From the IMG/VR virus record IMGVR_UViG_3300019458_000006, positions 1 through 64,000 of that record: a stretch of DNA of 64,000 bases, one strand, 5' to 3'. Below are positions 7,545-58,826 of this stretch, piece by piece. The translations under genes and the position numbers were made by a program. Within the stretch, counting starts at the first letter, position 1. Every line of letters starts with the position of its first letter. Origin of the DNA: a virus. The notes below the pieces were generated by a model, which searched no databases, was not told the DNA's origin, and saw only the letters and a program-made list of their open reading frames with translations.

Positions 7545-7624
7545 TACAGCCTCCCTGCTGAGCGAAAGAATCCTGATACCGTCAAGTATAGCAAGAATCG
7601 AGAATGTGGAAGCAAACCGAATCG

Positions 7625-7691
7625 CACACCACCCAGAAGAAGTAAAAACGGCGGCGCTGCGACGATTTTGCTTCTTTTAGGGGGGGGGCTA
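7625..7691 (-). repeat. post-stop-codon intergenic element, copy 1 (terminator-like core plus conserved downstream box)
   Basis: The minus strand reads TAG-C9-TAAAAGAAGCAAAATCGTCGCAGCGCCGCCGTTTTT-ACTTCTTCTGGGTGGTGTGC. The 36-nt core is identical to 44072-44107 on the plus strand. Confidence 0.8.
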
Positions 7692-35964: not shown

Positions 35965-38217
35965 TTAGGCGAAACTGAGTGATTGCTCTCCGGGTCCTAG
36001 GTGGACATACGGACCACCCGCCTCCCTGGCCTGCTTTTGCATCATCCGCATGGCGGCGTGATAGGCGGGACTGCCCCCAGCCCGCCGCTCGGCGGGGGCC
36101 ACGTAAGCGGTGCCATCCAGGAAGCGATGGGAGATGTACTCGCAGAGGTACTCCGTCGCTGCCATGCAATCATGAATCCGCTCGTTGACCGGCTCGTCGA
36201 TGGGCACCATATTACCCTCGTTGTCGGCCACTTCCTTCTTGCGGTAGGAGTAAAACTCCTTGATTGTGTAGTGGCATTTTGAGGATATCCACAGCTTCGG
36301 CCAGCCGTCCTCGACAGGCTCTAGGAACGCCCGGACCGTCCGCCGGCGCAGCTCCTTATCGTCGCAGCCCCGCATAAACCCGGCCTTCGTCAGCCGGGAG
36401 AGGATGCCCCGCTTGCGAAATTCTCGCTCATAGGACTCGAACACCGTCACATCGTTGCCGATGTTGGTTTGCCGGCCAGCCCGCTGGTCCATCACAAACG
36501 CCTCCAACGAGAGGCCTTCCGTCAGCGGCATTAAGGCGGCTGCGAACATCGCCGGAGTGTGCTTCTTGACGATCAGCTCTCGCTCGATGATAAGCCGGTC
36601 CCCCATGACCACCCGGTTCACTTCCGGCGGCGGGACCACCCCGAACAGGCAGGCTGTGCGAGTATGGCTAGGATCAATCACCAGGTAGCGGGTCCAGTCG
36701 TGCGGCAGCTGCGCGTCCCGGAGGCAGTTGCAGACAATCTGGTGGGCGGTTGCAGGCTCTGGCAGCGGCTCGTCGTACGGCTTGACGACGTGAATCGCCG
36801 AACCGAAGTCGTACATCCTCCGGCCGGAGACAAAGGCGGAGATGTCGCCCCGGTCACGATGGGCCTCGTCATCGTCACCATCCATGCGCAGCAAGCCTTC
36901 CTGAATACCCTGGCGGTCGGAGTAGGGGTTGTCCGAACCGGTAAGCTGAAAGACCTGAATCGGCGGCTTTTCGTCGTCCTGGTGGCGCTTGGCCCGCTCG
37001 ATGGTTTTGATGAGGGCTTCGTTGTGGATCTTGGGCCATACCGACCACAGGAACCAGCCCCGCACGCTCATCAAGCGGTCCTGCCACTCCTTTAAAAAGG
37101 CGGCATTGGCCGTGTCCTCGTCCAGCCAGATTCCGTGTACTGCATCGCCCTGCTTGGGATGGTCGCCGGTGGTGGGGTAGGCGCACATCGTCACGCCGTT
37201 AATGATCCGCACACTGTGGAAGATATTGCCGGCCGAGCTCTCCATGTGCCAGCTGTTGGGAACGATCAAGTGCTCACCAAATAAGGGCGGCGAGAGCACA
37301 CTTTCCTCGAACCTCTCCACGTCGAAATTGGGGTTATAGGCCCGCCATTTCTTGGTCTTATGGTCACGGAGGATGCGGAACTCGCACCCCAGTCCAGGTG
37401 AGAAGAGGCGGTGGTAGATCGTCTGGCCAATGTGTTTCACGTCCAGCCCAATGACCCAATACAGACCGTTGTTTCTTTTAGACGGAACACGGAACCGCTT
37501 CTTGATAGGCGTACCATCAGGGCGAATGATCGGAATGCCCAGTAAGCGGCTGGCGAATTCCATGACGACGGCTAGCGTGTTATGAGTGACGACAAAGTCC
37601 CTTGTAACATACGTATGATCGGGACATGACACGCTAATACACACGCAATCTGCCGCCCCGTCAGGCTTAATCGACCTTAGTATTTTGACGGCCTTCTCCT
37701 GGGCTGTTTTCCGCCAGTTCTCCCAGGCGGGGACCGCTGGTCGATCGCCTGGCAGCGGCTCGTCGCCCCACTCATCGATTATTTGCTGAGCGGAATACAC
37801 CTGCCACTGTCCGTCGCCGCGAAGCCTTTGACGGCCTGTCTGGATTAACCACAGATGCTCACCACAACATCTAGTCCACGAGCCATCGCTGAACGTAACG
37901 CGGAAAACATCCTTCATGCCCTGCGGGAACACTCCAGTTACGGTACACGGCTTACCGTCACCGCCAATAACAATATCACCTTGAGCCAGCTCACCTATCG
38001 GTCTCCACCCATTCGGTGTCAGGATCGGCTCGTCCTTGGGTTGCGCTTTCCCGCTGCGCTTTCCGCCCGTCACGATGTTTTCGCTGGCCTGAGACTCATG
38101 GATCGGCAGCTGCTGATCCGACGGCCGATAGACCCGGAGCGGGTGCTGCTCGCGTAGCTCCAGCTCGGCGATCCCCCTCTGGATCTCGGCCAGCTCGTAC
38201 TTCAGGCTGCCTGCCAT
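35965..38217 (-). CDS. terL: terminase large subunit, interrupted by an intein in the Walker A P-loop
   Basis: The exteins read VTGGKRSGK|T = Walker A GKRSGKT. Walker B-like GIWLDED is present, and the C-terminal half is nuclease-like. A 156-aa Hint domain is inserted. Confidence 0.8.
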   Translation of the reverse strand: MAGSLKYELAEIQRGIAELELREQHPLRVYRPSDQQLPIHESQASENIVTGGKRSGKAQPKDEPILTPNGWRPIGELAQGDIVIGGDGKPCTVTGVFPQGMKDVFRVTFSDGSWTRCCGEHLWLIQTGRQRLRGDGQWQVYSAQQIIDEWGDEPLPGDRPAVPAWENWRKTAQEKAVKILRSIKPDGAADCVCISVSCPDHTYVTRDFVVTHNTLAVVMEFASRLLGIPIIRPDGTPIKKRFRVPSKRNNGLYWVIGLDVKHIGQTIYHRLFSPGLGCEFRILRDHKTKKWRAYNPNFDVERFEESVLSPPLFGEHLIVPNSWHMESSAGNIFHSVRIINGVTMCAYPTTGDHPKQGDAVHGIWLDEDTANAAFLKEWQDRLMSVRGWFLWSVWPKIHNEALIKTIERAKRHQDDEKPPIQVFQLTGSDNPYSDRQGIQEGLLRMDGDDDEAHRDRGDISAFVSGRRMYDFGSAIHVVKPYDEPLPEPATAHQIVCNCLRDAQLPHDWTRYLVIDPSHTRTACLFGVVPPPEVNRVVMGDRLIIERELIVKKHTPAMFAAALMPLTEGLSLEAFVMDQRAGRQTNIGNDVTVFESYEREFRKRGILSRLTKAGFMRGCDDKELRRRTVRAFLEPVEDGWPKLWISSKCHYTIKEFYSYRKKEVADNEGNMVPIDEPVNERIHDCMAATEYLCEYISHRFLDGTAYVAPAERRAGGSPAYHAAMRMMQKQAREAGGPYVHLGPGEQSLSFA
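37579..38046 (-). mobile_element. mini-intein (156 aa) with class-3-like features
   Basis: It starts AQPKDEPILTPNGWRPIGEL (Ala1) and ends FVVTHN|T. Block B is CGEHLW (Trp two residues after His). Block F is DCVCISV (Cys). Thr precedes HN. I verified the junction codons on the sequence. Confidence 0.75.
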
Positions 38218-41374: not shown

Positions 41375-42490
41375 TTAGGCGTAGTTATAGAGCTTGCCAA
41401 GGTGCTTCGGGCTCTCGATTTTCAGCTGCCCGTAGAAGCCGCTCGACCAGAGGATGTCGTAGCCGCTGCGAGGATCCTTGTCGGGACCTTCCATCCATAT
41501 CAGCTCCGGCGTTAGGCAAGCCATCTCCAGGTTGGAGAAGTTGACCATATAGCCGGTGTTAACCGGGCAGTCATAGTCGCCGCTGATCGCACAGCCGTCC
41601 TGGTTGAGGGTGTTGCCGGAAAACCCCAGGTCATTGGCGGCCTTGTGGGGGATGTTGATGCGACGGATGGCCTCTTCGTGATTCTTGTAATCCTGGAAAA
41701 GCTTAGGGTTGAGGACGCAGATGTCCGGCATCCCGTCGTCACCGCCCGTGGTAGTGAGCCAGGTGATGGCCTGACCGATCACCCGCCAGCAGTTGTCCTC
41801 GAAGGTCGTGGAGCCAGTGCCCCAGCCCGTGCCCGACCAGTTGACCAGCTTCGGAGCGAAGTAGTCATACTCAGAGTCCCCCTGCCCATTGGGCCAGTTG
41901 TTGGCCAGCGTGGCATTCGGGAAGTCTGATCCCGTGGCGCTCCATGTCCCGCCCTGGTTGGCGAGGGCCGTGGAGAGCGTGGCATAGGTCGTGCTGGGCT
42001 CAGCAATCTCGTCCGAGGCCGCGGGGGCGGTTCGCTCGGTGAGGGCCGTCTCTAGGCCGTAGATGCAGTTTTCGCGGCCCGAAGTCCCGCCGGTGCGGTA
42101 GATTTCCCCAGCCATACCGTCTTGGAGTTTCTTCGTGGTCCGACCCTGCTTCGTCCTGAATAAGTTAATCAGGGCCTCCTCGCCCTTATTCATCAACTGT
42201 TGCTTCTTGGTGATCGAGTCGGGGACCACATAGCCCGACCAAGGCAAGGTAGCCTGGCGGAAGGCGTCGTGGTTGGTGAAATCGATCATCGAGCCGTCGC
42301 CGTGCTGGTGCATTGTCGGCTGACTGAATTCCACCTGCCACTTGAATTCGTCGCCGCCGTTGTTGTAGGTGATCGAGCCCTTTCGCTTGAACATCGCCAG
42401 GAAGAGACGCCGGCGGACGGTCATGTCCGAAGCCATCTTCATGTATTTGGGCTTCGTAGTGTGGATAATTCCAATCCATTCGTCAGACAT
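41375..42490 (-). CDS. major capsid protein
   Basis: 371 aa between a scaffold-like gene and a decoration-like gene. Size and composition fit HK97-fold capsid proteins. Confidence 0.55.
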   Translation of the reverse strand: MSDEWIGIIHTTKPKYMKMASDMTVRRRLFLAMFKRKGSITYNNGGDEFKWQVEFSQPTMHQHGDGSMIDFTNHDAFRQATLPWSGYVVPDSITKKQQLMNKGEEALINLFRTKQGRTTKKLQDGMAGEIYRTGGTSGRENCIYGLETALTERTAPAASDEIAEPSTTYATLSTALANQGGTWSATGSDFPNATLANNWPNGQGDSEYDYFAPKLVNWSGTGWGTGSTTFEDNCWRVIGQAITWLTTTGGDDGMPDICVLNPKLFQDYKNHEEAIRRINIPHKAANDLGFSGNTLNQDGCAISGDYDCPVNTGYMVNFSNLEMACLTPELIWMEGPDKDPRSGYDILWSSGFYGQLKIESPKHLGKLYNYA

Positions 42491-44066: not shown

Positions 44067-44130
44067 CCCCCTAAAAGAAGCAAAATCGTCGCAGCGCCGC
44101 CGTTTTTGGTACTTTCGGGTGGTTTGCAAT
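44064..44130 (+). repeat. post-stop-codon intergenic element, copy 2
   Basis: TAG-C5-TAAAAGAAGCAAAATCGTCGCAGCGCCGCCGTTTTT-GGTACTTTCGGGTGGTTTGC. The 36-nt core is identical to the reverse complement of 7644-7679. Confidence 0.8.
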
Positions 44131-44144
44131 TTCAGAGGCCTGCC

Positions 44145-45077
44145 ATGAGATTCAAGCAGCGATTCTTCTCGCCGCGCAGCTATGTTCCCAAGTTCTACGG
44201 CTATGCCCGCTTCAGCCACAGGCGGCGGCTCGATAAGTTCGATAAGGTCGATAGCGTCGCGGACCAAGAGATTCGGATCCGGGCGTTCTTTGAGATGTTA
44301 AAGGCGGAGAGGATTCTAGAGTGGGGCGGCATGTTTTCGGAGCCCCTGGCCCAGAGCGCTCACAAGCGCCGCTTTTCTCGTCGGCCGGCCGGCCGGGAGT
44401 TGGTGGCCATCCTTAGACCCGGCGATCAGCTGTGCGTGGATAGGTACTACCGCCTGTTTCGCGACATGGAGGATTTTGCTCACCAGCGCCGCTGGTTTGC
44501 TGAGCGGGGAATCGGCCTGCACATCGTCTCGTTCTTGGGTCTCTCGATGGACGCCAACAGCCTAGGGGCCGAGATGATGTTCGTGATGTATGAGGCCTTT
44601 GGGGAGTTTGAATCACAAATGAAGAGCGAGCTAGTCCGGGCGGCCAAGGCCAGCCTGCGAAGCCGGGGCCGGCACGACGGCGCTAAACTGCCTAAGTTCT
44701 GCCAGCTCGTGGACTGCCCTCCCGGCGAAACAAACATCGGCCGGCGAATGTTCCTGCCCTGGGCCCTGCCGGCCATGGATATGATCGAAGACGCCGTGGA
44801 CAGTGGCAGGAAGCTATCGTCCGCCATTGACGAGATCAAAGAGCAGTTCGGCGTCCGGCTGAATCGGAACTATGCGTCCGATTTATACTGGTTCACCAAG
44901 GCGTACAAAGAGCTGGGGCAGCCGGACATTAATACGCTTAATTGGCTGGACGTCATGGTGGAGTACAAGCAAGCCCACTGTGGAACCGACTTGGACCCCA
45001 GACCGCCCGCGACCGTTCGTAAGTATCTAGAAAGGAAGGAGGTCAGCGATGCCAAGGCCTACCTGCGGCGAGTGTAG
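44145..45077 (+). CDS. serine recombinase (resolvase/invertase catalytic domain)
   Basis: YGYARFSH (catalytic Ser context), GDQLCVDRYYRLFRDMEDF, and MFVMYEAFGEFESQMKSELVRAAKA. Confidence 0.7.
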   Translation: MRFKQRFFSPRSYVPKFYGYARFSHRRRLDKFDKVDSVADQEIRIRAFFEMLKAERILEWGGMFSEPLAQSAHKRRFSRRPAGRELVAILRPGDQLCVDRYYRLFRDMEDFAHQRRWFAERGIGLHIVSFLGLSMDANSLGAEMMFVMYEAFGEFESQMKSELVRAAKASLRSRGRHDGAKLPKFCQLVDCPPGETNIGRRMFLPWALPAMDMIEDAVDSGRKLSSAIDEIKEQFGVRLNRNYASDLYWFTKAYKELGQPDINTLNWLDVMVEYKQAHCGTDLDPRPPATVRKYLERKEVSDAKAYLRRV

Positions 45078-45530: not shown

Positions 45531-45772
45531 CTTTCGGCAAGCTGCGGATGGAACGGCTGGAGGGGCAGGTCAAGGCCACCGAAACACGCCTCTTAGAGGT
45601 GGAGGGCATCGTCAAGGTCGCCCTGGCCGAAATGCTCGATATCATCCAGAGGCACAACCAGGCCCTTCTGGAGATCGAGAAGATGCTGCATGTCATCGGG
45701 GGGATCACCGGACCAGAAGCGACCCATCCGCTAACAGCTTCAGGACCAGCCTCACATACCCCTCCAGACTAA
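45527..45772 (+). CDS. hypothetical coiled-coil protein
   Basis: 81-aa ORF with an ATGA overlap with the upstream gene. Confidence 0.5.
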   Translation: MTFGKLRMERLEGQVKATETRLLEVEGIVKVALAEMLDIIQRHNQALLEIEKMLHVIGGITGPEATHPLTASGPASHTPPD

Positions 45773-45881
45773 GGTTCTTCGCTTCCGCTAGTTTCTTCAC
45801 CCTATCGTACCCATTCTGGGTCAGACGGATGGCAACCACCTTATTCCGGACCAGTCCTGGAGGTAAACGAGGCCTGCCCAT
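45705..45881 (-). CDS. ribbon-helix-helix-type regulator (repressor candidate)
   Basis: Preferred start MGRPRLPPGLVRNKVVAIRLTQNGYDRVKKLAEAKNLSLEGYVRLVL, which has an RHH beta-alpha-alpha pattern. It is the only leftward gene in the rightward block. Confidence 0.5.
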   Translation of the reverse strand: MGRPRLPPGLVRNKVVAIRLTQNGYDRVKKLAEAKNLSLEGYVRLVLKLLADGSLLVR

Positions 45882-46428
45882 GGTGTATACCTGTTGCAGA
45901 TTAGTGGGTTTAGCGTCACAAAATATGGGGTTCCTGTAATCTTTTATATCAGAAAGTTGGTGCAACGCCAATAATTTCCTGGAATAACGAGGAGAAGGAG
46001 GCCCTGGATTGGCTCTTGAGCAAGATGAGCAGCCGCTCACTCCATATGAATGGCACCATAGAATTGAATATTCCAGCGTCAACCAGACGAGCGATCTTCA
46101 GGCACATCGCCAGGACGCCGCTAGAGGCCGTTATGGCTGCTTTCCCGGCGTGCGAGAGAAGAGGCCAATAACACAAAAGAAAGCCCTACAAAGCCTCCTA
46201 TGAGTCCAGGTGGCGCATAACCTTAAGGGAGCATCACAGAATAGCTATGATAGGGCTAGATAAGTTGCCTATCTTGCCAAAGAGTGGAAATGGTCAGGCT
46301 CCGGGTGGCGAATCTTAAGCAAGAACCCTAGCGGATGGGGCCATACCCACTACTCACCCTAGCTGTAATTACCACCGCACCGGCTGGTTTATACGCCACC
46401 CTAGTAGTAGTATAGCCTGCTATATCCA

Positions 46429-46449
46429 GTGTAGTCATATTGACTACAC
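46429..46449. promoter_or_regulatory. 21-bp palindromic operator (9-bp arms, 3-bp spacer) overlapping a TTGACT -35 box
   Basis: GTGTAGTCA-TAT-TGACTACAC. Extra half-site-like copies: CACTACACG at 46461-46469 and GACTACAC at 46654-46661. Confidence 0.6.
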
Positions 46450-46633
46450 CTGATGACATGCACTACACGCTCCCGCCTGATCTACCCTCAGCCGCCAGTC
46501 TATGTCTGGCCTCCCCCCTGGGGCCGCTGTACCACGCGCCTCGCCACCTCCGCGGCGGGCCCAGGCCGGGCGGCGCGGGGCGGCGCGTGCGAGCCTTTCG
46601 CGGGGGGGGCGGGTTTCCGGGGAGGCGCGGGGC

Positions 46634-46662
46634 TTGACTTCGCCGCAGTCACGGACTACACT
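46634..46662 (+). promoter_or_regulatory. sigma70-like promoter (TTGACT-N17-TACACT)
   Basis: -35 at 46634-46639, 17-nt spacer, -10 at 46657-46662. The G-free leader begins about 8 nt downstream. Confidence 0.55.
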
Positions 46663-46670
46663 GGTAGCTG

Positions 46671-46702
46671 CCACTCACCTACCTACTCACTTACTCACTT
46701 AC
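46671..46702 (+). repeat. G-free octamer-repeat leader, locus 1
   Basis: CCACTCACCTACCTACTCACTTACTCACTTAC has no G over 32 nt. GAGG and the ATG (46713) follow directly. Confidence 0.85.
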
Positions 46703-46712
46703 GAGGCACGCC

Positions 46713-47351
46713 ATGCTCACTTATGCGTCTTTTAGCGGCGGAGAACTCACGCTGCTGCCAGCTCCCACCTCCCCTCGCTCTTTCTGGCGAGATATGCGGC
46801 GGAGGGAGGCGGAGTACCTGGAGTCGCGGCGGTGGCGCGACTCCATAGACCCAGACGAGCCACCCCGGCCCATGCCCCTCCGGCCAGACGGCCAGAGCGC
46901 CCGGAGGGAGGCGCTGACGCCATATATGCGACTCGAGGAGCGGCACCCGAATCACCGCGACTTCGGCGAGGAGGAGCTCGCCGAAGTCGCCGCGGCTAAT
47001 GAGCGCGACTGGCAGGCAGTGTGCGAATTTCTGAGAGGCAAACTACCCCTCCATTCGGGGATACACACCGTAGTAGACGAGCAGGGGCTGCCGTTCCCCA
47101 TGCATGTACGTATAGCCACCTCCGGGCTGCCGGTGGCGGAGACCACGAGACCGAGGTATGAGCCGCCAGCGCCGCTAAACAGGCCCTGCTCGTATATGTG
47201 CCACTCACCAGAGGCGGTGCACTGTATGCCCGGCGTCTGCCGGGCCACACCAGAGGCCGCGCGGCGGTACGTGCCTGGCACCAAAGTGCTCCTGGAGTTC
47301 GCCTGCCGCTACGCCGCGGAGACTCTCCGCGAGCTCGGATTTGAGGCATGA
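46713..47351 (+). CDS. hypothetical protein
   Basis: 212-aa ORF with a GAGG Shine-Dalgarno 6 nt upstream. Confidence 0.6.
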   Translation: MLTYASFSGGELTLLPAPTSPRSFWRDMRRREAEYLESRRWRDSIDPDEPPRPMPLRPDGQSARREALTPYMRLEERHPNHRDFGEEELAEVAAANERDWQAVCEFLRGKLPLHSGIHTVVDEQGLPFPMHVRIATSGLPVAETTRPRYEPPAPLNRPCSYMCHSPEAVHCMPGVCRATPEAARRYVPGTKVLLEFACRYAAETLRELGFEA

Positions 47352-47459
47352 GACATAGGTGCGGTCTATCATCCGCCCCGCTGCAGTGAGCGGGGCGGCC
47401 AGATACACCGGCCATGTTGGCCATAATCACAATTTCCCCCTAAAAGATGGAGACAGACC

Positions 47460-47924
47460 ATGAGCATGACCGCACAAGCAGCTAGCGCCTACTTAGATTC
47501 GTGCCTGGAGCCAGACGGGCTCCCGCCGGCGGCGGCAGACGGGCGTGACGTACACGACGCCTATGCCGCTCTAGGGAGGGGGTTTGATGACTTTTTTGCC
47601 TGGCAAAGTAAACTCTTGGCCGCCGCGGCGGCTGGAACCGGCAGGGCCGGACCCTGCCCCATCAGCGAGGCCGAGTTCAGGGACCTGGCTCCGGAGCTCA
47701 CTCTCACTCTATTTAGCAGGAAGGTAAATACAGTCAAAAAATACGGAAAACCGCGTGCCAATACAAAAACTGGGCAGCTCAGCGGGGGCCGCTTCGAGTC
47801 AGGCGCATTCGGCTACTGGTTTGGTGGTCAAATTACCCTCGAAATCGGGGGTAAGAACGTGATTTTTCAGTGCGGCGGAAAGCTAGTGGCCGTGAAAAGC
47901 CAAGACGGAAAAAAAATAGACTAA
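47460..47924 (+). CDS. hypothetical protein
   Basis: 154-aa ORF followed by a strong terminator. Confidence 0.6.
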   Translation: MSMTAQAASAYLDSCLEPDGLPPAAADGRDVHDAYAALGRGFDDFFAWQSKLLAAAAAGTGRAGPCPISEAEFRDLAPELTLTLFSRKVNTVKKYGKPRANTKTGQLSGGRFESGAFGYWFGGQITLEIGGKNVIFQCGGKLVAVKSQDGKKID

Positions 47925-47954: not shown

Positions 47955-47991
47955 TAGCCCGGCGTACGCGAGTACGTACCGGGCTATTTTT
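47955..47991 (+). terminator. intrinsic terminator
   Basis: TAGCCCGG-CGTAC-GCGA-GTACG-TA-CCGGGCTA followed by a T-run (TTTTT). Confidence 0.75.
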
Positions 47992-48002
47992 ATGCGCCCG
48001 CC

Positions 48003-48168
48003 CAGGCGGGCGGCCAGCCCCGCAGCTGGCGGGCCTAGGACGCGATCTGCGGCGTGCGGCAGGCCTGGCGGGCCGAGGCCAGGCCGGCCGCACGAGCACG
48101 CCCTGGCGGGCCGCTGGCGAGCGCACAGGGCCAGCCAGCGGCGAGCTGCCGGCGGGCGGGCTGGCGGG
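48003..48168. repeat. very GC-rich block with CTGGCGGGCC iterons
   Basis: CTGGCGGGCC occurs at 48026, 48065 and 48103 (39- and 38-nt spacing). CTGGCGGG occurs at 48161 and CAGGCGGG at 48003. All ORFs here look compositional. Confidence 0.8.
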
Positions 48169-48187
48169 TAGCCGGCCCGCCGAGTGG

Positions 48188-48231
48188 AATCACCCACCTA
48201 CTCACCTACTCACCTACTCACTTACTCACCC
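48188..48231 (+). repeat. G-free octamer-repeat tract, locus 2
   Basis: AATCACCCACCTACTCACCTACTCACCTACTCACTTACTCACCC has no G over 44 nt. Confidence 0.85.
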
Positions 48232-48382
48232 GCACGGCCCCCAAGGAACACTTACTGGACCAAGGAAAACCTTGGCTCTTGGAAGCGGATAGCAGCCCAT
48301 AATTCAGACTGGTATTGATGCTAGGGGGCTGTTTTTGTAAACAGATTGTCAGGAAGTTAGCCGCTGCTTTAAGGAACATCTA

Positions 48383-48631
48383 GTGGACCCCAAAATAGAC
48401 AGGCAAAACGCCATCCAAGCCCTTAGCTGGTGTGACCAGATTTGCCAAGCGCTCCAAGACGGGGATGAGGACGCCATCCACCTCATGCGAGGCAAGTTGG
48501 TGTACTTTTTCGCCAAAGCTGAGGAGCTAGACATCGTGGCGGCGGTCGATCTGGTCAGAACTAAGGCACTGCTGGTCCTCAAAGAGCAAGGTAAACAAGG
48601 AGAACAAGGAGAATCCGATGAATCGAATTAG
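48383..48631 (+). CDS. hypothetical protein (GTG start)
   Basis: 82-aa ORF. Confidence 0.45.
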   Translation: MDPKIDRQNAIQALSWCDQICQALQDGDEDAIHLMRGKLVYFFAKAEELDIVAAVDLVRTKALLVLKEQGKQGEQGESDESN

Positions 48632-48732: not shown

Positions 48733-48903
48733 ATGCAACGTCGCTACCGAGTCAGTTGGCGCGGGCCGTACGACGGACAGAGAAATAACGACCGGATCCT
48801 GACGCTGACAGCCAAGAACAAGAAACAGGCCCTGGAATTGGTCGGTCGCCTGTTCCCGATGAAGAAGATAAGGGTGGAATACCTGACCACCCAGAAGAAG
48901 TAA
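48733..48903 (+). CDS. hypothetical small protein
   Basis: MQRRYRVSWRGPYDGQRNNDRILTLTAKNKKQALELVGRLFPMKKIRVEYL, with GAGGA upstream. An alternative overlapping 59-aa ORF at 48618 cannot be excluded. Confidence 0.45.
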   Translation: MQRRYRVSWRGPYDGQRNNDRILTLTAKNKKQALELVGRLFPMKKIRVEYLTTQKK

Positions 48904-48960
48904 TATCGTCGCTGCTGCGACGTTTTTACTACTTCCAGGTGGCTTGATATAGCAAACCAG
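48901..48960 (+). repeat. post-stop-codon intergenic element, copy 3 (diverged), containing a terminator and a putative promoter
   Basis: TAA-TATCGTCGCTGCTGCGACGTTTTTACTACTTCCAGGTGGCTTGATATAGC. It shares ATCGTCGC..CG-T5-ACT..CTTC..GGTGG with copies 1 and 2. Confidence 0.6.
48907..48927 (+). terminator. intrinsic terminator
   Basis: CGTCGC-TGCT-GCGACG followed by TTTTT. Confidence 0.7.
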
Positions 48961-48964
48961 CCGC

Positions 48965-49025
48965 ACCCACTCACTTACTCACTTACTCACTTACTCACTT
49001 ACTCACTTACTCACTCACCACATTG
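48965..49025 (+). repeat. G-free octamer-repeat leader, locus 3 (CACTTACT x5 plus partial copies)
   Basis: CACCCACTCACTTACTCACTTACTCACTTACTCACTTACTCACTTACTCACTCACCACATT has no G over 61 nt. A putative promoter, TTTACT-N17-TATAGC, lies at 48925-48953. Confidence 0.9.
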
Positions 49026-49060
49026 TCCCTTGATTTCTGTTTTCTGGAGGGATTCGTCAC

Positions 49061-49327
49061 ATGCTAGCTTTATCGTTCGTGGACGCCATCCGCCAGGATG
49101 GCTATCGTCTCCTGCGCGTCTCGAGAACCAACCGGCGATACGCCGGCGAGCACGCCGTGCTCGCTATGGACCGGGACTACATCGTCACCTACGTCTTTGT
49201 GCCTCACGGCGGGTGCTATGGGGCGTGCTGCCACCGGCAGAAAATAATCCGGTCCACCGGTCGGGCCGAGGCACGGGTGGAGTTTCTACGAAGGTTTCCC
49301 CTAGCCGATGTGATTCGAGTGGACTGA
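49061..49327 (+). CDS. hypothetical protein carrying palindromic element copy B
   Basis: 88 aa with a GGAGGG Shine-Dalgarno 9 nt upstream. It contains ..YAGEHAVLAMDRDY.. encoded by 49136-49160. Confidence 0.55.
   Translation: MLALSFVDAIRQDGYRLLRVSRTNRRYAGEHAVLAMDRDYIVTYVFVPHGGCYGACCHRQKIIRSTGRAEARVEFLRRFPLADVIRVD
49136..49160 (+). repeat. palindromic element copy B, inside a CDS and in frame
   Basis: GCGAGCACGCCGTGCTCGCTATGGA. Confidence 0.9.
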
Positions 49328-50852: not shown

Positions 50853-51131
50853 ATGCCGTATGTAAGAATTGTCTACGTCCCCATCGATAGCAGCCACCGT
50901 TATTGCGGGCTCGAGGGAGCCATTGTCCGCGTGAACTACCTTCCGGCAAGCGGAATAGAAGTCGTCTATGCGGCGGACAGACTCCCGTGCCGGCCCGGAT
51001 GCGAATCCGACCATCCCCAGTCGGTGGGTGCTTTCTGTGAAGAAGTCCCAGCACATCTAGTACAGCCTGGGGGTCCAGGCACGCACGAACTCGGACCAAT
51101 CTTTATCCCGCCAATCACTAACCCTAACTAG
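50853..51131 (+). CDS. hypothetical protein in the Ubl cassette
   Basis: I prefer the start MPYVRIVYVP at 50853, which has an AAGGAGAG upstream. Confidence 0.5.
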   Translation: MPYVRIVYVPIDSSHRYCGLEGAIVRVNYLPASGIEVVYAADRLPCRPGCESDHPQSVGAFCEEVPAHLVQPGGPGTHELGPIFIPPITNPN

Positions 51132-55453: not shown

Positions 55454-55526
55454 GTGGTAGTAGCTCAAACGATTAGAGCGCTAGATGGTGAATCTAGAGG
55501 TGCGGATTCAACTTCCGCCTGCCACC
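55454..55526 (+). tRNA. tRNA-like gene (cloverleaf folds by hand; anticodon position reads GUG/His) with several non-canonical positions
   Basis: Hand fold: acceptor GTGGTAG/CTGCCAC (7 bp, one G-U), D stem GCTC/GAGC, anticodon stem CTAGA/TCTAG with loop TGGTGAA, variable loop AGGT, T stem GCGGA/TCCGC with loop TTCAACT, discriminator C. Deviations: G rather than U at position 33, A at 19, and A53-U61. Confidence 0.45.
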
Positions 55527-57374: not shown

Positions 57375-58826
57375 ATGCTCTCTGGCAACTTCCGCTGGGA
57401 GCAGGTCAATCTGGCCGTGGCTCATGTCAACGGCCAAATCTATCGCATGAACGGGCAGCACACCTGCTTTCCGGCAGGGACAAAAATACGCCTGGCCGAC
57501 GGGACGCTTAAGCCAATTGAGCACGTCACGCTCATGGACAACGTCCTTACTGCCGAGGGGCGGTGCCGTGGTGTAAGGCAGGTCCATTCAATGCCGCACG
57601 TCGGGCACCTCTGCCGAGTGCGGCTCTGGGGTCACGCGCACCTCCGCTGCACCCCCAATCACGAGATTCTTACCAGGCGTGGATACGTCTCGGCAGATTC
57701 ATTAACATCTGATGACCATGTGAAAGTGCCGCGATATGCCCCGCAGTGGGCGTCTGTCATCACGACAGCCGAGCACGTAAGCGGATCGTCCGCAGCAAGC
57801 CGGGCCAAAAGCACAACCTTTCCAGCCTCTAGCTTTTCACACGGCGGCCGGGTGAATCACAAGCCGGTCCCGGATGCAATTAAACTTGACAATGACTTTG
57901 GGCGACTGATTTGGCTTGCGCCATCCATACACCAAGAACTCACTAAGAACAGGCCAGTCTGGAAGGTGACGGTGGCCGTAGCGACGCTAGGAACTAGGCA
58001 CCAGGGCCTCCCGGAGGTGGATTCCGACTCCACCTGGCGCAGGGTGCGGGCAATCGATAAAGAGAAATTTGCCGGCCTAGTGTACGACCTTGGCGTGGAC
58101 GAAGATCACTCGTACGTCGCTGAAGGGATTGGCGTGCATAACTGCTGGGCGCGTATCCAGGCCGATGAGGAGGGCCTCAGCAAAAAGACCCGCTGCCCAG
58201 TCCAGATGCTCCAGTACCAATGCAAGACCGTGGAGGACGCCCGGCAGCTGTACGCCTCCCTGGATCGTGGCCGGGGCCGCGGATCGGGGCTGGTAGTCAC
58301 CTCTCTGCTGCTAGGCACCAAGGAATTTGCGGGATATACCGGCCCGCAGCTGAAGATGATGAGTGCTGGGTACGGTCTCTGGCGGTGGGATGAGGCGCAC
58401 GCACGCAAATGGCACAATGCCGATGAGCGAGCGGATATGATGAAGACCGAACATCACAAGCTAACCCTCATCGTGGGGTCGATCATCAGGGAGTCAAGGC
58501 AGCGGGACTTCAGGCACCTGAAGCGGGCGGCCGGGATTGCGGCCATGTTTGAAACCTGCAACAAGGCCCCGGCTATTGCTCGCGAGTTTTGGCTGGTGGT
58601 GCGGGACGGAATCGGCGTAACCAACAAGACCGATCCTCGCTACGCCCTGCGGGAGTACCTCAAGAACACGGCCCAGTGCAGTAGCGAAGCGGCTGGCAGC
58701 AACCTCCGCGTGGCCACCGTTGAGGACATCTACCGGGCCTGTATTCAAATGTGGAATGCCTTTCGGGCCGACAAGGAAGTTAGGCTGATCCGCATCGCCG
58801 AAGGCAACCGTCCACTAGCGCGCTAA
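57375..58826 (+). CDS. ParB/DndB(DGQHR)-like protein interrupted by an intein
   Basis: The extein junction reads ..YRMNGQHT|CWARIQ.., so the intein sits right after a DGQHR/DGxHR-like motif. Confidence 0.5.
   Translation: MLSGNFRWEQVNLAVAHVNGQIYRMNGQHTCFPAGTKIRLADGTLKPIEHVTLMDNVLTAEGRCRGVRQVHSMPHVGHLCRVRLWGHAHLRCTPNHEILTRRGYVSADSLTSDDHVKVPRYAPQWASVITTAEHVSGSSAASRAKSTTFPASSFSHGGRVNHKPVPDAIKLDNDFGRLIWLAPSIHQELTKNRPVWKVTVAVATLGTRHQGLPEVDSDSTWRRVRAIDKEKFAGLVYDLGVDEDHSYVAEGIGVHNCWARIQADEEGLSKKTRCPVQMLQYQCKTVEDARQLYASLDRGRGRGSGLVVTSLLLGTKEFAGYTGPQLKMMSAGYGLWRWDEAHARKWHNADERADMMKTEHHKLTLIVGSIIRESRQRDFRHLKRAAGIAAMFETCNKAPAIAREFWLVVRDGIGVTNKTDPRYALREYLKNTAQCSSEAAGSNLRVATVEDIYRACIQMWNAFRADKEVRLIRIAEGNRPLAR
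57465..58142 (+). mobile_element. intein (226 aa, Cys1 ... VHN|C), no intact homing-endonuclease domain
   Basis: CFPAGTKIRLADGTLKPIEHV (block A), TPNHEILT (block B), LVYDLGVDEDHSYVAEGIGVHN|C (blocks F and G). I verified the junction codons. The segment LDNDFGRLIWLAP may be a LAGLIDADG remnant. Confidence 0.8.

Follow-up and report, generated by a model that had tools for sequence, protein, structure and literature searches.

G-free octamer arrays of a Pirellulales-type repeat family as candidate structure-free leader spacers in a phage early region

Why would a bacterial virus carry, at the head of its early genes, tandem repeats that contain no guanine at all? The question is raised by IMG/VR virus record IMGVR_UViG_3300019458_000006, of which positions 1 to 64,000 were analysed (64,000 nucleotides (nt), hereafter the window), and in which three G-free arrays of the form (CACYTACT)n lie on the plus strand at 46671-46702 (array 1), 48188-48231 (array 2) and 48964-49024 (array 3). 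We document here the sequence, position, orientation, predicted lack of structure and host-wide distribution of these arrays, together with their absence from related phages; their transcription and their effect on translation are what we infer. The answer that we favour, tentatively, is that the arrays are host-type repeats acting as, or tolerated as, structure-free, G-free spacers that keep the Shine-Dalgarno (SD) sequence and start codon of the following gene accessible.

All three arrays are intergenic, both by public gene calls for an identical contig and by codon-based calls made here, and they fall within 2.4 kb of a 70.5-kb genome, on one strand, at the head of the rightward early block. 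A two-unit probe allowing up to two mismatches gave 11 matches, every one of them on the plus strand and at the three loci, where dinucleotide-preserving shuffles predict 0.06, and the 13-mer probe CTCACYTACTCAC gave 10 matches against 0.13 expected. CACYTACT does not occur on the minus strand of the window, and no further array was found anywhere in the ~70.5-kb circular genome. Tandem Repeats Finder assigns the arrays a period of 8, with 2.4, 4.5 and 5.9 copies in arrays 1, 2 and 3, respectively, and their G-free runs of 32, 44 and 61 nt are reported as the three longest in the window on either strand, the next being given as 33 nt. The tandem-octamer tracts first noticed by a model that saw only the letters and their open reading frames (ORFs; hereafter the sequence-only reading) are thus present as described, G-free and on the sense strand. 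Array 1 is degenerate, with about 3.5 units in 32 nt (CCAC-TCACCTAC-CTAC-TCACTTAC-TCACTTAC, with a half unit of 4 nt), and passes directly into GAGG, so the claim that every tract is closed by CACC fails there. Array 2 (44 nt) consists of three CACCTACT units and one CACTTACT unit with CACC half units on its flanks. Array 3 contains the five perfect CACTTACT units that had been claimed for it, beginning at 48972, 48980, 48988, 48996 and 49004; the tract itself was correctly recognised, but its 61-nt G-free run occupies 48964-49024 and not 48965-49025. Host copies of the repeat suggest TACTCACY as the natural phase of the unit, with CACC as its end.

As RNA, these tracts would contain 37-50% C and no G, with YC recurring at 8-nt intervals. 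In predicted minimum-free-energy folds all three arrays are unpaired, in line with one option of the sequence-only reading, that of unstructured tracts, and the leaders are no more structured than shuffled sequences (z-scores 0.25-0.49). A second option was that the units, through the anti-SD core CACCU, might pair with SD-like tracts. CACCU is present in arrays 1 and 2 but absent from array 3, and no fold joins an array to its own SD, so we rejected sequestration of that SD by an anti-SD-like array. A scan of the whole window with Rfam 15 matched only the tRNA-His gene at 55454-55526 and nothing on the arrays. Comparison of copy number among related isolates or reads had been proposed as a check: an ENA contig from another sample, the sole independent assembly spanning all three arrays, is 100% identical to the window over 6.6 kb and has the same copy number at each array, with no variation seen, and a Logan contig ends within array 2.

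The repeat unit is far from specific to this phage. Exact three-unit arrays gave 4 matches among 2.9 million viral contigs, at least 120 matching genome contigs and at least 120 metagenome matches. The figures that follow for the host family rest on the loci listed from genomes (L140-L259) and metagenomes (L020-L139), and genes at these loci were called with a codon log-likelihood model, so that all orientation numbers are approximate and heuristic. Planctomycetota account for 80 of the 120 genome matches listed, nearly all of them Pirellulales (Lacipirellulaceae and Pirellulaceae); isolates with arrays include Aeoliella sp. SH292 (NZ_CP197417), A. straminimaris and Bythopirellula polymerisocia (all Lacipirellulaceae), and a single metagenome-assembled genome (MAG) holds at least 11 array loci. 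The metagenome matches form two groups, one of low-GC contigs with long microsatellite-like arrays and one of ~45 high-GC contigs with arrays of 24-100 nt that resemble those of the window; the former, and low-GC genome matches with similarly long arrays, were set aside as unrelated microsatellites, probably from eukaryotes or other phyla. Host copies share with the window arrays the same unit, the same alternation at Y and the same CACC ends, and their setting is intergenic at ~55-68% GC. On this likeness we assign the phage arrays to a (CACYTACT)n / (AGTRAGTG)n repeat family typical of Pirellulales and not specific to phages. Because the repeat is widespread in this order, the phage host is probably a member of Pirellulales; weaker support comes from a codon model trained on host array loci, which scores the window genes positively, and from one window ORF that is 40% identical to a gene of a Pirellulaceae MAG. 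The host-wide occurrence of the repeat also weakens the case for a dedicated phage regulatory site.

In host genomes the repeat is often arranged as an inverted pair. All 47 pairs among the listed loci have the order (AGTRAGTG)n, a non-conserved spacer of 9-39 nt, then (CACYTACT)n, and none has the reverse order; the arms are unequal (132 versus 28 nt in one case), and examples are found at L169 6435-6574, L232 4444-4621 and L117 121-213. Pairs lie between co-directional genes in 31 cases, convergent genes in 5 and divergent genes in 2, and they fill the space between the upstream stop and the next start codon, the former lying at the first G-rich unit or within it and the latter coming shortly after the C-rich arm. 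The G-rich strand has stops in three frames, and the G-free strand has neither stops nor ATG, GTG or TTG. Single arms make up ~40% of the elements in Planctomycetota genomes; among single arms whose two neighbouring genes point the same way, 27 are antisense and 10 sense (binomial P = 0.008), or 13 versus 7 when Planctomycetota genome loci are counted alone. The phage copies are all single arms, and no inverted partner arm was found for them on the minus strand of the window. The host pairs resemble miniature foldback elements. No description of octamer strings or of planctomycete intergenic repeats of this kind was found in the searchable literature, where the nearest work concerns REP elements (PMC3733652), and a host family of octamer arrays in which the G-rich arm always comes first is apparently undescribed. 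Whatever its function, the repeat ties an unclassified phage lineage of ~70.5 kb to Pirellulales by sequence, and the architecture of the host pairs raises questions about translational coupling, Rho avoidance and the origin of the repeat.

The arrays seem to be young in the phage. Four related lineages carry the early region (L009, L262-L264, L265 and L266-L268), and none has an array at the array 1 or the array 2 position, yet all still keep the terminator, GCGGGC iterons and two AAGGAACA boxes. Their absence from all four lineages suggests that the arrays are recent, lineage-specific gains. Arrays of the same family do occur in phage contexts unrelated to the window phage: in L002, an IMG/VR contig, and in the related L142, a prophage of a Planctomycetota MAG, sense arrays end 5-9 nt before the AGGAG-ATG of late genes, at intergenic sites that differ between the two.

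Whether the arrays of the window could be 5' leaders was judged from the signals around each, and array 1 gives the clearest answer. A promoter-like site, P1 (TTGACT-17-TACACT, plus strand, 46634-46662), has a predicted start at ~46669-46670, 1-2 nt ahead of the array, and is the only plus-strand promoter-like site from a scan of 45.5-50 kb. The array begins 9 nt past the sigma-70-like -10 element of P1 and abuts, at its end, the GAGG that serves as SD (GAGG-N6-ATG, plus strand, 46703-46715) for an ORFan of 212 amino acids (aa) at 46713-47351. The closest relative that retains the region, L009, is syntenic and has at the same position CTTGCA-17-TACACT before a 211-aa positional counterpart, whose protein is 25% identical to the 212-aa product (pairwise E = 0.003). 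Its leader is 56 nt long, low in G and without an octamer array; that of the window is 50 nt. From the position of P1 and the similar length of the L009 leader, array 1 would be nearly the whole 5' untranslated region (UTR) of the first early unit, and it appears to have taken the place of an ordinary leader of about the same length. The sequence-only reading had placed array 1 near a predicted start and running towards the SD of 46713, and this is borne out by the distance to the -10 element, by the junction with GAGG and by the retention of the P1 position in L009; these predicted signals give good support to array 1 as a 5' leader. A hairpin followed by a T run after ORF 47460-47924 (plus strand, 47956-47991), read from the sequence and not listed by the terminator scan, would end the transcription unit that array 1 heads, and the layout of a terminator followed by TTTTCGTGCGCC is also present in relatives. 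Footprinting of the regulatory region against L009 gave no common operator.

For array 3 the leader reading is plausible. A terminator hairpin (CGTCGCTGCTGCGACG plus a T run, plus strand, 48907-48927), itself the core of a longer palindrome, lies 37 nt before the array, and the SD of an 88-aa ORF at 49061-49327 (GGAGGG-N8-ATG, plus strand, 49047-49063) follows 22 nt after it; this ORF and that at 46713 are both called by the public and by the codon-based gene calls. The promoter candidate is weak (TTTACT / TG-n-TATAGC, without the T at -7) and overlaps the descending arm of the extended terminator palindrome, so that of the earlier proposal of array 3 as a leader the SD downstream holds up, but the promoter is not supported. 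The palindrome belongs to a family of four copies of ~44 nt, each terminator-like with extended arms (7621-7664, minus; 44087-44130, plus; 48879-48922, minus; 48907-48950, plus), with the pattern CGTCGCNGC..CG, TTTTT, ..CTT...GGTGG..TG..AT. Two copies (44067-44131 and 7620-7684) match at 89% identity over 65 nt, in inverted orientation and 36 kb apart, and one copy lies just upstream of the serine recombinase gene (44106-45077). A conserved 'promoter' motif before array 3 was rejected for this reason, since it belongs to the palindrome family.

Array 2 fits least well. Neither reading of the sequence nor the promoter scan recognised a promoter candidate for it, and the next ORF (GTG at 48383) is ~150 nt away, so the three transcription units proposed by the sequence-only reading are reduced by one: array 2 lies in an untranslated spacer, and reading it as a 5' leader finds no support. 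It is preceded directly by a GC-rich block of (T)GGCGGGCC repeats and hairpins (plus strand, 47992-48187) and followed by the two AAGGAACA boxes. Blocks of this kind, with a (G)GCGGGC(C) motif and hairpins, stand before both array 1 (46500-46632) and array 2 (47992-48187). GCGGGC(C) iterons occur at the same position in L009 and L262-L267, and all relatives retain the block that follows the 154-aa gene as an iteron-like cluster (L009 ~1300-1140, reverse strand; L262 ~880-1010), which may serve as an origin or bind a regulator. The two AAGGAACA(C/T) boxes (48243-48261 and 48371-48389), separated by ~30-130 nt, stand ahead of the gene that follows array 2 and are kept in L009 (~1050-1015, reverse strand) and in L262 (1128-1189) and L265; the second box doubles as an SD. 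A module shared 5' of all three arrays was rejected, as alignment gives no common promoter motif, and arrays as terminators were rejected too, with no hairpin inside any array and separate terminators before arrays 2 and 3.

Taken as structure-free spacers, the arrays would have arisen by a recent gain in this lineage, probably through seeding and replication slippage, in three intergenic spaces. The orientation of all three would put the G-free strand into early mRNA, with array 1 supplying nearly all of the 5' UTR of the first early transcript, array 3 placed just ahead of the next ribosome-binding site, as leader or spacer, and array 2 in an untranslated spacer. Since G-free RNA forms no stable helices, the arrays would behave as C/A/U-rich spacers devoid of structure, and the SD and start codon downstream may be kept open, as at a ribosome standby site or an S1-type enhancer. 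In addition to the placement, orientation and unstructured nature of the arrays, the strongest evidence from comparison is given by the neighbouring 154-aa gene: in four lineages a G-poor tract of 19-32 nt directly precedes its SD, with sequences that differ (0 G in 25 nt in the window; 2 in 32, 1 in 24 and 2 in 19 in the relatives). The sense arrays close to SD sites in L002 and L142, and the clustering of the three window arrays on one strand, also speak for this interpretation. TMV (tobacco mosaic virus) Omega is active in Escherichia coli, and models of standby sites and S1-dependent enhancers have been put forward in bacteria. Such leaders, including TMV Omega with its poly(CAA) and ACAAUUAC repeats, resemble the arrays in placing a G-poor leader of short direct repeats 5' of the initiation region and in acting by lack of structure, as is proposed for the arrays, and TMV Omega, too, contains an 8-nt repeat unit. 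They differ in that there is no sequence similarity and in that the phage unit is common on the host chromosome and mostly lies outside leaders there.

Several observations weigh against this interpretation. Array 2, as noted, has no promoter and is distant from the next start codon. The excess of antisense over sense among unpaired host arrays argues that the family as a whole is not a leader element, and the relatives lacking arrays indicate that any benefit is dispensable. The perfect units of array 3 look like a young slippage product and not like a conserved element. The mild overall depletion of G in leaders of the window (0.24 versus 0.297 for the genome) is in itself in favour of such spacers, but the difference is modest, and the gene and start calls are heuristic.

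An alternative interpretation, which we consider rather unlikely, is that the arrays are neutral or selfish hitchhikers, whether slippage-prone simple sequence repeats (SSRs) or foldback-like derivatives, that arise or spread wherever tolerant intergenic DNA replicates in Pirellulales cells and have no role in phage gene expression. The host-wide family, whose copy number varies widely, whose arms are unequal and whose spacers are not conserved, is consistent with this, as are the host arrays that occupy intergenic space from stop codon to start codon, the different intergenic sites of the L002 and L142 arrays, the four array-free early-region lineages and the perfect units of array 3. However, three of three arrays share one orientation and are confined to 2.4 kb of 70.5 kb, and every single-arm array in a phage context is sense and beside an SD, whereas host singles lean antisense. 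Phase-variable SSRs likewise have perfect short tandem units, copy numbers that differ by locus and a position between promoter and start codon, but here no variation has been seen so far, the independent assemblies being identical, and steps of 8 nt in a UTR give no obvious on/off logic. Host copies also resemble REP, BIME and REPIN elements in being short, intergenic, high in copy number and often in inverted pairs right after stop codons, and GTAG, which tags one superfamily of REP elements (PMC3733652), is found in their G-rich strand. In contrast to those elements, the arms consist of octamers in tandem and vary in length, also within a pair, the spacers are not conserved, and the single arms of the phage are predicted to be unable to fold, whereas host pairs would fold.

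It is improbable, in our view, that the arrays are operators for a ribbon-helix-helix (RHH) protein, in which ACTC boxes separated by 4-bp spacers would be coated cooperatively by the phage RHH protein or by a host factor, repressing or timing early transcription. The ACTC core recurs every 8 bp in the arrays, a formal resemblance to RHH operator boxes, and the (ACTC-ACYT)n geometry equals that of the ParG sites OF and parH of plasmid TP228, where 5'-ACTC-3' boxes with regular 4-bp AT-rich spacers follow one another at a tandem 8-bp period (PMC3130281). An RHH-like gene of 58-59 aa (minus strand, 45705-45884), with sub-threshold NikA/CopG Pfam hits, is found 0.8 kb upstream, in divergent orientation to the early block, and likely encodes an early regulator, and array 1 spans about +1 to +32 of P1. 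The three phage sites with their differing copy numbers recall omega, which regulates three promoters. With OF/parH, the omega heptads of pSM19035 and the MetJ metboxes the phage loci have in common tandem boxes, several arrays of differing box number and a small RHH gene nearby, and L008, another relative, pairs a different repeat unit with an apparent RHH protein of different beta-strand (seen by eye, with no confirmation from family searches). Against these likenesses stand arrays at many Pirellulales chromosomal sites unrelated to phage and the closest homologue of the RHH protein, that of L009: at 60% identity it shares the residues that putatively face DNA (RNKV[V/I]A[I/V]RLT), yet L009 is array-free. 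Array 2 lies away from promoters, the Pfam matches of the RHH protein stay below threshold, and, unlike in OF/parH, the spacers are ACYT and not strongly AT-rich, all boxes are direct repeats, and no ParA- or ParF-like partner was found among the window ORFs screened. A parH-like centromere was rejected on the last count, no ParA-type ATPase having been found among those ORFs, a screen that covered part of the ORFs of the genome. The RHH protein may have its operator at a 14-nt inverted repeat (46424-46454; ATCCAGTGTAGTCA / TGACTACACCTGAT).

Very unlikely, we think, is an antisense action in trans, by which early phage (CACYUACU)n RNA would pair with (AGURAGUG)n in host mRNA and bring about RNase III cleavage or a translational block, and with it host shut-off, or by which host repeat RNAs would conversely silence the phage leaders. 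The phage and host strands are perfectly complementary, host singles mostly present the G-rich strand in mRNA (27 versus 10), hugging the upstream stop codon, and the phage arrays all have the opposite sense and lie in what would be the earliest transcripts. The idea nonetheless rests on inference, most host G-rich arms already have a partner in cis, relatives do without arrays, and the orientation statistic comes from heuristic gene calls. We see equally little likelihood in the broader proposal that the phage carries the C-rich strand of the host repeat deliberately and acts in trans, by pairing with host transcripts or by capturing a host factor that recognises the octamer; if true, such action would amount to a repeat-based mechanism of host take-over.

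Loading of Rho at rut-like sites, whereby C-rich, G-free, unstructured RNA would recruit Rho and attenuate early transcription until translation or an antiterminator intervened, is hardly likely: the composition and lack of predicted structure given above fit, rut sites such as lambda tR1 are likewise C-rich, G-poor and unstructured RNA early in a phage transcript, and avoidance of exposed C-rich RNA would explain both the G-rich-first pairs (47:0) and the antisense singles of the host, but the tracts are short (32-61 nt, against ~60-80 nt or more for usual rut sites), translated ORFs follow directly, with start codons 11-37 nt beyond arrays 1 and 3, so that ribosomes should block Rho, and the prophages L142 and L002 carry sense arrays within late operons, where polarity would harm. 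We also rejected the idea that the serine recombinase uses the arrays for attachment or recombination, as it is kept in relatives without arrays.

Should the arrays prove to be functional leaders, as in the reading of structure-free spacers that we favour, they would be a natural bacterial-virus case of a translational leader built from repeats and free of structure, and they would offer a simple, portable expression element for Planctomycetota, a phylum that is hard to engineer. Searches of the literature for promoter or SD usage in planctomycetes found nothing relevant.

The window has a GC content of ~59%. Its minus strand bears a structural block that includes genes for a terminase-like ATPase (35965-38217) and a major head protein (41375-42490); on the plus strand, genes that are mostly ORFans form a long block from 46713 onwards. 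There is a single tRNA-His gene (coordinates above). A contig from another run bridges the end of the window to its start through 6.5 kb that contain no array, so the genome is circular or circularly permuted, at ~70.5 kb (window 1-64000 plus L260 10575-17089). Contigs of samples ERZ27251177 and SRR7811943 are 100% identical to the window over the 4-7 kb compared. No similar isolated phage was found, either by megablast with 44-52 kb or by tblastn with the major capsid protein, and in IMG/VR 13 contigs encode a capsid protein that is 54-76% identical. The 212-aa ORF, the RHH gene and the 154-aa ORF each have at most two distant homologues in a set of 5.8 billion proteins; queries with the 212-aa ORF, the recombinase and an RHH alignment gave no additional relatives, and searches of PHROGs and Pfam with the flanking early ORFs gave nothing informative.

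Other early leaders of the window are nearly G-free just 5' of the SD, at 47421-47445 and 51095-51130; CCATAATCACAATTTCCCCCTAAAA, for example, stands before GATGGAGA-ATG at 47460. In L008, whose capsid protein is 71% identical to that of the window, positions 207-300 of the reverse strand hold a G-rich-first pair built of a different unit, GGTGGTG / CACCACC (GGTGGTG..., ~40 nt, TCACCACCCACCACCCACCACCCA), and the apparent RHH protein of this contig, read by eye from the DNA, has a different beta-strand. From L008 there is thus a hint of repeat units that vary with the phage or host lineage. Further along the early block, a 483-aa ORF (57375-58826, plus strand) matches intein splicing and Hint domains (Pfam PF14890 and PF05203) and is thus an intein-containing early or replication protein.

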